Shown here one piece after another: positions 8,513 through 10,594 of a DNA stretch of 64,000 nucleotides. The position numbers and the translations under genes are program-made. The DNA is from an uncultured Gammaproteobacteria bacterium (lineage in GTDB: Bacteria; Pseudomonadota; Gammaproteobacteria; CAISUE01), in assembly GCA_964471475.1 (NCBI GenBank), contig CAYYFQ010000006.1:75-64074 (forward strand). The letters run 5' to 3'. Below the pieces are notes generated by a model. That model saw only the letters and a program-made list of their open reading frames with translations. It did no database searches and was not told the origin of the DNA. Each line of letters begins with the position of its first letter. The stretch's first letter is position 1.

Positions 8513-8528
8513 GGGCATATATGCCCTT
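8511..8528. terminator. Perfect 18-bp palindrome (aagggcatatatgccctt) between convergent genes; candidate bidirectional terminator hairpin
   Basis: Seen directly in the sequence. It lies between the stop at 8512 (+ gene) and the stop at 8527 (- gene). Confidence 0.4.
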
Positions 8529-9666
8529 AACTATTCATCAACTGCTGTGCTTGATTCAATGTGACGCGTGATGTGTAATTTTGGCTCAACAAATTGACGG
8601 CAAGCAATAATTGGTTTTGCTCTTCCGATTCATGAATTTGTTGCAATTCATAAAGCATCTCCGCTTCTAAATAGAGTTGCTCGCGTTGCAATTCGGTAGG
8701 GGACGCGGCTTGTAAATGTTGATACCAACCACTGGCAGGATCCAAGCGGCGTGTAGCCATGAATTTTTCAAGTTCACGGGCATTGGTGGGTGCCGCTTTT
8801 GAAGCATCTGGGAAGTTACTGTTAATTTGTTTTAATATATTCGCATCAAAATGATTTAAAGGCTGCGTACGTGCGAAAATATTTTGAAGCGCATAAACGC
8901 CCGCCGTTTGGTTTGCAATGAGCCTGCGTAAGCGCATCATGAAATCACTGGTAGGATTATCAGGAAAAGCTACGGGCGTAAGAGCGCCACTGACTAAAGC
9001 CATGTAAACTTCTGCTGGGTTTTTCGCGTAAGCGCTGAGCACGTTGCTTTTGGATCCGCTTGAATCAGTTTTGCTTGCAGGCACATATTGAAATAAAGAG
9101 GCTGCATTATAGGGGGCGGCAAATTGGTCACTGATCATATAATCAAAAGTAGTGCCATGAGGAGTATTGCCAATAGAGTTGTTGTTAAAGCTTGTCCCGC
9201 TGGTTAAAGGCGCCGGTTGAAAAGCACTGTCGGCTTGCGTTAAATAGGCTGTGATTTGATTATTTGTCAGGTTAAACATCATGCTTCCAATCAAAATTTC
9301 AGTGGGAGTGCGCCCAAAAGCATTCGGTTTCGCTTGAGTAGAGGGCGTCGTCAGAGAATTAGTGATGTAAGGCGTGTCATAGTTTTTTAAATAATCCCCC
9401 GGATTATTAGGGTCGAAGCCCGGTGTTTGCGGCATTTGCATTAAGCCATATCCGGTGACTAAAGGGTAAACGTCGTGGGCACTGATAATACCGTAAGGTG
9501 TCACATCATTCGCTTGCAGATAATTTTGACTATACCCAGCATAAGTATTGCCTCCTCCTTGCGTGCTGGGAGGGGTAGGCGTAGGCGCGACTTGTCCATA
9601 AGCAAGAGGAGATAAACCGATGAGGGTTAATAAACTGCTGATGACGAGAGGATAAAATTTTTTCAT
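8527..9666 (-). CDS. icmX: Secreted protein in the IcmX (DotZ?) position of an icmW-icmX-like operon; IcmX-like
   Basis: Signal peptide MKKFYPLVISSLLTLIGLSPLAYGQ. GGAG RBS 7 nt upstream of the ATG at 9666. It is the last gene of a co-directional IcmW-led operon. The assignment comes from operon position, signal peptide and size, not from sequence alignment. Confidence 0.45.
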   Translation of the reverse strand: MKKFYPLVISSLLTLIGLSPLAYGQVAPTPTPPSTQGGGNTYAGYSQNYLQANDVTPYGIISAHDVYPLVTGYGLMQMPQTPGFDPNNPGDYLKNYDTPYITNSLTTPSTQAKPNAFGRTPTEILIGSMMFNLTNNQITAYLTQADSAFQPAPLTSGTSFNNNSIGNTPHGTTFDYMISDQFAAPYNAASLFQYVPASKTDSSGSKSNVLSAYAKNPAEVYMALVSGALTPVAFPDNPTSDFMMRLRRLIANQTAGVYALQNIFARTQPLNHFDANILKQINSNFPDASKAAPTNARELEKFMATRRLDPASGWYQHLQAASPTELQREQLYLEAEMLYELQQIHESEEQNQLLLAVNLLSQNYTSRVTLNQAQQLMNS

Positions 9667-9678
9667 AAGGGACTCCAC

Positions 9679-10053
9679 TTAAGCATGACTATAAATGCTG
9701 GCTGGTGCATTATTCGCAGGAGCCGCTGAAGGGTTGTTCGGTTGATTAGAAGATGTAGGAGTTGGTGAAGAAGGCGTAGGAGGCGCGACCACGATGGGAG
9801 CTGTTTGCGCAGGGGTTTCTGGCGCTGGGTTGCCAAAAGCGAGTTGAGAAGGAGTGGGCGCATTAGGCTTCTCACTTTTGTCATCATTTTTTAGAGCGCT
9901 TTGCATACTAGCGGCCGATTGGCACAGTTGACTCACATAGGGCTCTATGTTGCCAAGATTTGTTCCTTGCTGGCAATAATTTTGATCCAGTGCGGCAGAA
10001 GCCAAGCAAGGAATTAATAAAAAACATCCACACCAGCTATAAATTTTATTCAT
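9679..10053 (-). CDS. Small proline-rich secreted protein (124 aa) encoded between the icmW-like and icmX-like genes
   Basis: Signal peptide MNKIYSWCGCFLLIPCLASA. The C-terminal half is Pro/Thr/Ala-rich (PTPSQLAFGNPAPETPAQTAPIVVAPPTPSSPTPTSS). Its start ATGAATAA overlaps the end of the icmW-like gene, suggesting translational coupling. Confidence 0.5.
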   Translation of the reverse strand: MNKIYSWCGCFLLIPCLASAALDQNYCQQGTNLGNIEPYVSQLCQSAASMQSALKNDDKSEKPNAPTPSQLAFGNPAPETPAQTAPIVVAPPTPSSPTPTSSNQPNNPSAAPANNAPASIYSHA

Positions 10054-10510
10054 AAGATTTTCCTTCCAATGCTTTTTTAATAAGAGCAAAGCGGTCGGGT
10101 GCAAGCATGCGTGCAAGAAGGCGCAAACGTTCAAATACTACATTGCGGCGCAATAATAAACTATTGTTGTCTGTTGGGAGTTGCGCATTTTGCTCAGCAT
10201 ACATTAATAGGCGAGAAGCGCAGCCTGGATGCACCGAGTCCAGAATGTGGAGAAAACGTAGTCCAGACCCCGTTTTTAATTGTACAGAGATGCTGATTTG
10301 AATATCTTTATCGGCGAACTCGTTAAAATTCACAGACTTAATATCATCAAGCTCTTTGCCTAATTTTTCTAAAGTAGCAATAAATTCCGGATCTTTGCGA
10401 TCTAAAAATTCTTCCACCGATTCCATAAACATAATGACACGATAAATAGAAGGATCGCGGTATTCGAACCAAAAGTTTTCAACATCTCGAGGTAATAAGC
10501 TAGGCATCAC
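10046..10510 (-). CDS. icmW: Dot/Icm type IVB secretion adaptor IcmW-like protein
   Basis: 154-aa protein. Blocks NFWFEYRDPSIYRVIMFMESVEEF, LGKELDDI, SGLRFLHILDSVHPGCASRLL and VVFERLRLLARM match my recollection of Legionella/Coxiella IcmW, which is ~150 aa. A database search should confirm this. Confidence 0.65.
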   Translation of the reverse strand: MMPSLLPRDVENFWFEYRDPSIYRVIMFMESVEEFLDRKDPEFIATLEKLGKELDDIKSVNFNEFADKDIQISISVQLKTGSGLRFLHILDSVHPGCASRLLMYAEQNAQLPTDNNSLLLRRNVVFERLRLLARMLAPDRFALIKKALEGKSYE

Positions 10511-10570
10511 TGCACATCCTGTTTTTTTGAAGCTTGTTCATCATAGAACAAGCGAGTATGCGTGTCAAAG

Positions 10571-10594
10571 GCCCTTGAATGAAGATTCAAGGGC
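10571..10594. terminator. Hairpin gcccttgaat-gaag-attcaagggc downstream of nrdA
   Basis: 10-bp perfect stem seen in the sequence, 10 nt downstream of the nrdA stop. Confidence 0.35.

Follow-up and report, generated by a model that had tools for sequence, protein, structure and literature searches.

We describe a compact group of three genes in an uncultured gammaproteobacterium, probably a relative of Legionella and Coxiella, which very likely forms an operon complete in itself, icmW-small ORF-icmX, belonging to a Dot/Icm type IVB secretion system encoded on the chromosome. The operon lies at positions 8527-10568 on the minus strand of the window, by which we mean the whole stretch of 64,000 nucleotides that was analysed. 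As a variant of a known secretion system it is a modest one, made up of a known IcmW, a very divergent IcmX and a small exported protein. Its detachment from dotA and icmV is a fixed state of the whole uncultured clade and recurs in other lineages.

The adaptor gene icmW and the layout of the cassette

All three ORFs are found on the minus strand where the initial annotation had placed them. The gene icmW (10046-10507) encodes the cytoplasmic IcmS-IcmW adaptor subunit of the Dot/Icm type IV coupling complex. It had been read as 10046-10510 with 154 aa; the gene stands, and its product is likely 153 aa long, the GTG at 10510 being a mechanical ORF start and the ATG at 10507 the likely true one, from which the N-terminus fits the MP.L of L. 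pneumophila IcmW. The possibility had been raised that the 154-aa protein would fail to hit the IcmW family, and the outcome was the opposite: as proposed, it is an IcmW, matching Pfam PF23130 (E 1.1e-41, 142.7 bits, cut-off 27) and NCBIfam NF038222 IcmW_IVB (130.3 bits, cut-off 100, over all of the 139 profile positions), and aligning end to end with L. pneumophila IcmW in PDB 5xnb and 7bwk (E 1.2e-37; residues 2-151 with 1-150 of 5xnb_C). Database searches returned 1026 homologues, with 47-49% identity to the Legionella IcmW orthologue over the full length; within the clade identity is 60-77% and 56 positions are invariant. In Legionella, IcmW recruits effectors as the partner of IcmS on the coupling protein DotL, and by orthology the window protein would serve as the same kind of cytoplasmic adaptor. 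We know of no counterpart of IcmW in IncI conjugation systems.

The initial annotation had further proposed ATGA-type overlaps at both junctions of the cassette. This holds for the first one, where the small ORF begins with the ATG at 10053 and shares 8 nt with the end of icmW (ATGAATAA), an overlap through which the small ORF would be translationally coupled to icmW. The second junction carries a 12-nt spacer (TAA GTGGAGTCCCTT ATG) with a GGAG Shine-Dalgarno sequence and therefore has no overlap.

Putative promoter, hairpins and the nrdA neighbour

Upstream of icmW lies the co-directional nrdA (10605-13457), as had been noted, and the two genes were said to be separated only by a hairpin. A hairpin of 10-12 bp is indeed present just past the nrdA stop (10569-10596, minus strand; GCCCTTGAAT-cttc-ATTCAAGGGC). 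It is however not alone: between it and icmW we found a near-consensus predicted sigma-70-type promoter, TTGACA-17 nt-TATGAT (10540-10568, minus strand; 11 of 12 consensus matches), whose hexamers and 17-nt spacing do not vary across six genomes although the flanks have diverged beyond alignment (A6 alignment). Transcription of the cassette would start here, and because this promoter is the cassette's own and conserved, the adjacency of nrdA says nothing special on regulation.

Of the alternatives we considered, the one that survives best is that the cassette, having no promoter itself, depends for its expression on read-through from nrdA, so that the stoichiometry of the secretion system would be tied to dNTP synthesis. 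The co-directional nrdA and the same nrdA adjacency in the related locus L012 speak for it, as does the hairpin itself: on the nrdA strand the stem is trailed by CTTT only, so that as an intrinsic terminator it would be weak and termination may be leaky. We nevertheless regard read-through as improbable, since the promoter stays the same across six genomes and since, in four of them (L001, L006, L013, L014), the upstream genes are others or an upstream nrdA is not demonstrated; in L012, moreover, nrdA and icmW are about 650 nt apart.

What else could the hairpin do? The core, TTGAA-N6-TTCAA, is kept ahead of the -35 hexamer also in genomes that do not have nrdA upstream, so that a regulator may bind here, whether or not the hairpin also terminates nrdA. 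By eye, we saw neither PmrA-type (TTAATATT repeat) nor CpxR-type (GTAAA repeat) sites upstream of icmW. At the other end of the operon a perfect 22-bp palindrome (TTAAGGGCATATATGCCCTTAA, 8509-8530, not assigned to a strand) spans the stop codons of icmX (8529-8527) and of a convergent murG-like gene (8510-8512). It is probably a bidirectional terminator hairpin shared by the two genes, at which transcription of the cassette would end; the terminator scan found no qualifying T-run at 8509-8530.

Detachment from dotA and icmV

The statement that no further type IV secretion genes lie in the window was upheld: Pfam and NCBIfam searches, which covered ORFs of 120 aa or more from 1 to 62.3 kb, revealed no other Dot/Icm gene, nor was one among the matches listed for the last two large ORFs and for 21 gap ORFs of 50-115 aa, Dot/Icm genes below about 120 aa being excluded solely by the family matches listed. 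HMMs built from related loci gave no match for IcmV or DotA in the 64-kb window, leaving the 53 kb upstream of the cassette free of icmV and dotA, and icmS and dotL were not found in the 64-kb window either. In Legionella, by contrast, divergent icmV-dotA genes lie about 100 nt upstream of icmW. Since icmW-icmX is detached from icmV-dotA, the Dot/Icm locus differs from that of Legionella by rearrangement. To this extent the earlier suggestion of a rearranged or fragmented locus was right, but the state is not peculiar to this genome and extends over the clade.

The same three-gene cassette is found in at least seven related metagenomic sequences, amid varied housekeeping genes, with all three ORFs intact and with the overlap geometry conserved. 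At L001-L004, L005, L006, L007, L012 and L013, icmV and dotA are absent within 3-10 kb upstream of the cassette. Outside the clade, a divergent icmV-dotA lies within 3 kb at 29 of the 33 loci for which 3 kb or more of upstream sequence is available, and the canonical order dotA-icmV<>icmW-icmX is seen at L008 and L010, the L. micdadei locus being canonical; four loci from other lineages show a similar detachment. The Coxiella trio presumably adjoins icmV-dotA inside the main Dot/Icm region. That system has been placed at 1,559,100-1,591,800 bp (PMC4117601). A likeness to the window, by published description, is offered by Comchoano-1 (Candidatus Comchoanobacter, UBA7916), where IcmX and IcmW lie outside the main T4BSS genomic regions (PMC9418006).

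The order nrdA-icmW-small ORF-icmX-murG-ispG-tgt is common to the window and L012, and L001 differs from it by one inversion of the icmW-to-tgt block. The operon probably separated from dotA-icmV in an ancestor of the clade and was later moved by local rearrangements such as this inversion, with the remaining dot/icm genes expected elsewhere in the genome. The G+C content of the cassette (0.439) matches that of its neighbours (0.421 and 0.431), and no tRNA or Rfam match was obtained within the 64-kb window; with no tRNA integration site and a matching G+C content, neither of these features points to a mobile island. Several large ORFs without a Pfam match, which are candidate effectors, are located near the cassette.

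The cassette could also be a decaying remnant of a lost Dot/Icm system, detached through genome erosion instead of belonging to a working split locus. This would agree with the lack of any other Dot/Icm gene in the 64 kb (ORFs of at least 120 aa plus the smaller-ORF matches listed), with the unusual divergence of IcmX, and with the partial T4BSS sets in small Coxiellaceae MAGs reported by Hugoson et al. (PMC8896642). Erosion, however, fits poorly with three ORFs kept intact across at least seven related sequences, with the identity and invariant positions of IcmW and an invariant C-terminal block of IcmX over the clade, with promoter hexamers that stay invariant between diverged flanks and with a conserved overlap geometry; the nearby large Pfam-less ORFs, possible effectors, speak against it as well. 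We therefore consider a remnant very unlikely and prefer a working system with a split locus. Because the remaining Dot/Icm genes would lie outside the 64-kb window, it is from conservation only that we infer a functional machine.

A divergent IcmX and a small, predicted exported protein

The gene in the icmX position (8527-9666, minus strand) had been described as coding for a 380-aa signal-peptide protein. Position and signal peptide (MKKFYPLVISSLLTLIGLSPLAYG, followed by Q) are as described; the length, read from the ATG at 9666, is 379 aa and not 380 or 383 aa, and the product is identical to database protein P0001. As in all related loci, icmX is next downstream of icmW in one operon. The protein has a variable middle, an N-terminal L..GYG motif known from the A2 consensus, and a conserved C-terminal helical region (MATRRLDP..GWY..P.ELQREQLYL.AE).

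The proposed similarity to IcmX was recovered through profiles and intermediate sequences and not by a direct match to the IcmX model. Against NF038225 IcmX_IVB (cut-off 500 bits) the window protein gave no match even at E<=10. This cut-off is reached by Legionella IcmX alone (535 bits); the IcmX proteins of the canonical non-Legionella loci L010 and L009 likewise fall below it (62-66 bits), and the L001 orthologue matches the model with E 0.0028. The A1 family profile collected 167 representatives at E<=1e-3 among 1.8 billion proteins, and 38 of 48 sampled members match NF038225. The A2 profile finds IcmX in PDB 9ngy with E 3.8e-36; this broader profile was needed, as PDB sequence searches with the 383-aa ORF or with a 9-sequence clade profile returned no IcmX match. 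BLASTP links the window protein to IcmX of the canonical loci L010 (2e-10) and L009 (4e-14), and hhalign links it to L. micdadei IcmX (probability 92.8%, E 3.9e-7). Its only direct match to a curated model is TraW NF033888 (E 0.005), spanning the C-terminal ~75 residues at 16 bits, far below the cut-off of 100. TraW of IncI1 plasmids (R64/ColIb-P9) is what we take to be the IncI counterpart of IcmX; the window context, unlike that of TraW, is chromosomal. The predicted structure was of low confidence (pLDDT 36 from 9 sequences, 64 from 48), with a poorly modelled N-terminal half and C-terminal helices at pLDDT 70-92, and Foldseek of this weak model against PDB gave no significant match, IcmX 9ngy included. 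Profile and intermediate-sequence evidence alone thus supports the third gene as coding for an IcmX-family protein.

That the 379-aa protein is instead an unrelated or repurposed periplasmic protein sharing a C-terminal helical motif, which would form with the small ORF a lineage-specific exported pair hitch-hiking behind icmW, is very unlikely and the least probable of the alternatives: the missing direct IcmX_IVB match, an alignment to canonical IcmX limited to the last ~150 residues and the negative fold search would fit it, but the place directly after icmW is conserved, homologues grade from the clade into IcmX in canonical context, the N-terminal L..GYG motif is present, and Coxiella IcmX, too, has diverged so far that it does not replace the Legionella protein and is nonetheless essential (PMC11338181; PMC4117601). 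As an IcmX, the protein would be exported to the periplasm and, by analogy with L. pneumophila, where IcmX is a pentamer docked on DotA that forms a central closed protochannel (PMC12501162), would assemble in the same way.

In Legionella, too, icmX lies downstream of icmW on the same strand and encodes a signal peptide and the conserved C-terminal helical block. Legionella icmW-icmX (Dot/Icm region I) differs in that icmX, there 464-466 aa long, abuts or overlaps icmW without a middle ORF. The idea that the small ORF is the split-off N-terminus of a longer Legionella-type IcmX was rejected because the window IcmX retains its own signal peptide and the N-terminal L..GYG motif; a variable extended domain would fit the length difference.

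The small ORF (9679-10053, minus strand; 124 aa) agrees with its earlier description as a signal-peptide protein with a proline-rich tail. Sequence reading gives a plausible Sec signal peptide (MNKIYSWCGCFLLIPCLASA, followed by ALDQ), by which export is predicted, then a two-Cys core (NYC...LC..MQSAL) and a tail of 65% P/S/T/A that ends in IYS. A word-based database search returned only the protein itself, and no match was found in Pfam, NCBIfam or PDB. Homology was detected to the positional orthologues at L006, L012, L014 and L001 (phmmer 4e-20 to 1e-4), which together with the window form one homology cluster (A4 alignment); comparison with the middle ORFs of eight other clusters gave no cross-lineage homology (hhalign E 0.01-0.96). 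By position the ORF belongs to a CBU1651-like class, which has no curated family and comprises ORFs of 80-220 aa with an N-terminal signal peptide in the icmW-icmX gap whose start overlaps or abuts the icmW stop. At 19 of 26 non-redundant loci this start lies within -16 to +5 nt of the icmW stop, and most of the non-Legionella Dot/Icm loci surveyed have the gap filled by such an ORF. Homology was found solely in the closest cluster, but the description of the ORF as lineage-specific does not hold for its position, which is commonly occupied outside Legionella. Coxiella burnetii has the same three-gene order with a small signal-peptide protein in the middle (icmW-CBU1651-icmX, CBU1650-1652), to which the window ORF corresponds by position. 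CBU1651, of 15.9 kDa, is secreted through Sec (PMC3882888), and a mutant with one transposon insertion in the gene showed no defect in vacuole biogenesis (PMC4117601).

We predict a fast-evolving exported protein. Whether it serves non-Legionella type IVB systems as an accessory subunit that has gone unrecognised, in the periplasm or exposed at the surface, is doubtful, but if it did, turnover of the small ORF across lineages would track host range. A possible partner would be the variable extended domain of IcmX, or DotA.

In conclusion, our finding is mostly one more data point on a known system. Orthologue clustering had suggested IcmX as Legionella-specific (PMC8896642), and it is not: a very divergent IcmX occupies the same position in other lineages. 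Dot/Icm gene order outside Legionella and Coxiella is less collinear than stated in reviews, and icmW-(small ORF)-icmX acts as a self-standing module under its own predicted promoter, movable away from dotA although IcmX and DotA form one physical complex. The recurring, sequence-unrelated small exported ORF makes a cheap target for testing lineage-specific periplasmic accessories of type IVB systems.

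The icmW cassette and its first gene

Downstream of a 950-aa minus-strand ORF (10605-13457), which Pfam and NCBIfam identify as nrdA, the alpha subunit of class I ribonucleotide reductase (NF005544, 1658 bits), we found a trio of consecutive ORFs on the same strand (8527-10510). The gene nrdB is not adjacent to nrdA, and no Ribonuc_red_sm match occurred among the window's scanned ORFs. The first ORF of the trio, initially annotated as IcmW-like, is IcmW: it passes both curated cut-offs (Pfam PF23130, 142.7 bits against 27; NCBIfam IcmW_IVB equivalog, 130.3 bits against 100) and aligns end to end with the crystallised L. 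pneumophila IcmW (E 1.2e-37). Because of this alignment we prefer ATG 10507 (MPSLLP...) as the start over GTG 10510. Within the clade, i.e. the window's lineage of loci with IcmW at least 60% identical, 56 positions are invariant over 17 aligned IcmW sequences. From what is established in L. pneumophila, IcmW together with IcmS on DotL would recruit effectors.

The second ORF (124 aa) starts at ATG 10053 inside the last icmW codons (TCT TATG AAT AAA), an overlap of 8 nt, and its translation would be coupled to that of icmW. The third ORF most plausibly starts at ATG 9666, 12 nt past the stop of the small ORF and 6 nt past a GGAG, and its 379-aa product equals the database protein P0001. The ATGA-type overlaps proposed initially thus hold for the icmW/small ORF junction and give way to a 12-nt gap at the next one. 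As also proposed, both the 124-aa ORF and the protein at the icmX position, with 379 instead of 380 aa, begin with signal peptides; judged from the sequence itself, these are typical Sec signals with a positive n-region and a hydrophobic core (putative cleavage sites ASA-A and AYG-Q), and both proteins are predicted to be exported via Sec.

A divergent IcmX and a variable middle gene

Is the 379-aa protein an IcmX? No model of the local Pfam copy matches it, nor does NCBIfam IcmX_IVB when hits up to E 10 are allowed; the sole direct match is conj_TraW, in the C-terminal part (E 0.005). The curated IcmX_IVB cut-off of 500 bits is attained by Legionella IcmX only, so that missing it is uninformative outside Legionella. 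With a profile from eight close homologues (46-59% identity), a search of 1.84 billion proteins retrieved 167 cluster representatives (E<=1e-3), which are mostly 330-470 aa long and aligned over the C-terminal 150 positions. [quoted passage not shown] BLASTP connects the 379-aa protein to the gene downstream of icmW in locus L010 (E 2e-10), where the order is canonical (dotD-dotC-dotB...dotA-icmV<>icmW), and to its equivalent in locus L009 (E 4e-14); both of these proteins match IcmX_IVB at ~1e-17. In hhalign the clade profile matched L. micdadei IcmX with 92.8% probability (E 3.9e-7; block MAT.R...W...P..Q.E...L.AE). Predicted structures (pLDDT 36 with 9 sequences, 64 with 48) gave no significant Foldseek match. 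The evidence is indirect but consistent, and on these profile and alignment results, which support the initial reading, we regard the protein as a divergent IcmX. By analogy with L. pneumophila (PMC12501162), an IcmX pentamer would dock on DotA as a closed central protochannel. IcmX has been termed Legionella-specific by Hugoson et al. 2022 (PMC8896642) and in a 2024 review. Profile searches tie proteins of ~340-390 aa at non-Legionella icmX positions to IcmX, and its reported absence there is probably an artefact of orthologue clustering.

A word-based database search with the small middle ORF returned only itself. ORFs of 99-135 aa occupy the matching position in every relative, and those of L006, L012, L014 and L001 are detectably homologous to it (phmmer 4e-20 to 1e-4). 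They have in common ALDQNYC-x(~18)-LC-x(5)-MQ, a C-terminal (I/L/P)Y(S/A) motif and a P/S/T/A-rich tail (65% in the window). Given these positional relatives with homology and common motifs, the small ORF is a real, fast-evolving gene. We surveyed 63 metagenomic icmW loci together with other fetched loci. Outside Legionella, icmW and the gene at the icmX position were commonly separated by a signal-peptide ORF of ~100-220 aa, which usually began 7-16 nt ahead of the icmW stop. The surveyed middle ORFs fall into many sequence clusters, between which no homology was detectable. In Coxiella the place is filled by CBU1651, the positional counterpart of the window's ORF. CBU1651 is a 15.9-kDa protein of the Sec-dependent secretome (PMC3882888); with one transposon insertion in its gene there was no defect in vacuole biogenesis, and insertions at the 3' end of the gene had a polar effect on icmX (PMC4117601). 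A less likely reading is that the small ORF serves the Dot/Icm machine as a periplasmic or surface accessory specific to its lineage.

Control signals around the cassette

The initial annotation placed only a hairpin between nrdA and icmW; this gap also holds a conserved promoter-like element, TTGACA-17 nt-TATGAT, with 11 of 12 consensus positions. When ~120 nt upstream of icmW were aligned from six genomes (window, L001, L006, L012, L013 and L014), neither hexamer varied, nor did the length of the spacer or a TTCAA located 6 nt ahead of the -35; the spacer had diverged in sequence, as had all of the DNA on either side. This footprint argues for a promoter of the cassette's own. The TTCAA belongs to a palindrome, TT(G/A)AA-N6-TTCAA, kept in the same genomes, which may be a binding site for a regulator of the icmW operon. 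In the window it lies, as TTGAA-N6-TTCAA, within the hairpin (10569-10596, 10-bp stem), and on the nrdA strand merely CTTT follows, so the hairpin may serve a regulator, terminate nrdA weakly, or do both. Some read-through from nrdA into the cassette might occur. At the other end, the coding regions of icmX and a convergent murG-like gene lie 14 nt apart, and a perfect 22-bp palindrome (8509-8530, TTAAGGGCATATATGCCCTTAA) holds both stops and is likely a bidirectional terminator.

Detachment from other Dot/Icm genes

Individual scans (Pfam or NCBIfam) of the ORFs of at least 120 aa in 1-62.3 kb revealed no Dot/Icm component, and IcmV and DotA HMMs derived from fetched loci found nothing in the window. 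The last two large ORFs and 21 gap ORFs (50-115 aa) were scanned in one batch and judged from the best 25 of 207 families, so the exclusion of small Dot/Icm genes is not rigorous; within this scope the window holds no other T4SS genes, as first noted. In L. micdadei and L010, icmV-dotA lies divergently ~100 nt upstream of icmW, unlike in the window. Outside the clade, 33 loci extend 3 kb or more upstream, and 29 of them show such an arrangement within 3 kb. The clade relatives (L001-L004 from one MAG, L005, L006, L007, L012, L013, L014) all have the three-gene cassette and neither icmV nor dotA upstream. The detachment suspected initially is thus a character of the whole clade, and the remaining dot/icm genes are presumably elsewhere in the genome. 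The housekeeping genes that surround the cassette differ: HvfC_N/DUF192 and murG/ispG in L001, COX15/UbiA/APH and GDPD in L006, rpoZ/acyl-CoA dehydrogenase and PNP/DeoC in L005 and L007. L012 has the order of the window (nrdA-icmW-small ORF-icmX-murG(-)-ispG-tgt), and L001 differs from the window by one inversion of the icmW-to-tgt block; a breakpoint of this inversion falls at the window's nrdA-icmW junction. Icm genes have been separated elsewhere too: icmV-dotA is missing within 6 kb in four loci of other lineages (L036, L051, L069, L072), and Needham et al. described IcmX and IcmW of Comchoano-1 outside the main T4BSS regions (PMC9418006). The detachment is therefore real, yet not unprecedented. 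It might also mark the cassette as a decaying relic; the conservation of IcmW, the IcmX C-terminus and the promoter argues against this.

Other arrangements were seen in further loci. In a more distant T4BSS group with IcmW 41-46% identical (L042, L053, L064, L073; about 4500-6450 in each), an ORF of 150-230 aa runs divergently from icmV and is followed by a ~300-320 aa ORF and icmW last, with nothing IcmX-like downstream of icmW; the trio may remain linked while its internal order varies. L009 (7161-9770 and 4000-6645) and L019 have two DotA-like ORFs upstream of icmW, of which one stands between icmV and icmW. In L009 each measures about 870-880 aa. The pair looks like a dotA duplication.

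Five large window ORFs without Pfam or NCBIfam match are candidate translocated effectors: 13828-17280 (1150 aa, rich in coiled-coil-like and Pro-rich segments), 4820-6139 (439 aa), 24953-26374 (473 aa), 26521-28002 (493 aa) and 45011-46930 (639 aa). A 663-aa ORF (34888-36879) unusually fuses a peptide deformylase domain to a C-terminal GNAT acetyltransferase domain. The 147-aa ORF at 62478-62921 is probably the source of a FosA-type fosfomycin-resistance glutathione transferase match (best E 5.7e-52), assigned by ORF size since the batch scan pools hits across ORFs.

The analysis shows what the genes are and how they are ordered, that icmW and the small ORF overlap, that the promoter-like element is conserved, and that conservation extends across the clade. 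The IcmW and IcmX components, the three-gene order from Coxiella and the location of icmW/icmX apart from the main clusters in Comchoano-1 were already known. Modestly new are an especially divergent IcmX, a middle position nearly always occupied by a signal-peptide protein with complete sequence turnover between lineages, and a documented clade whose cassette seems to be a self-sufficient module with a promoter of its own, which has changed place among housekeeping genes.
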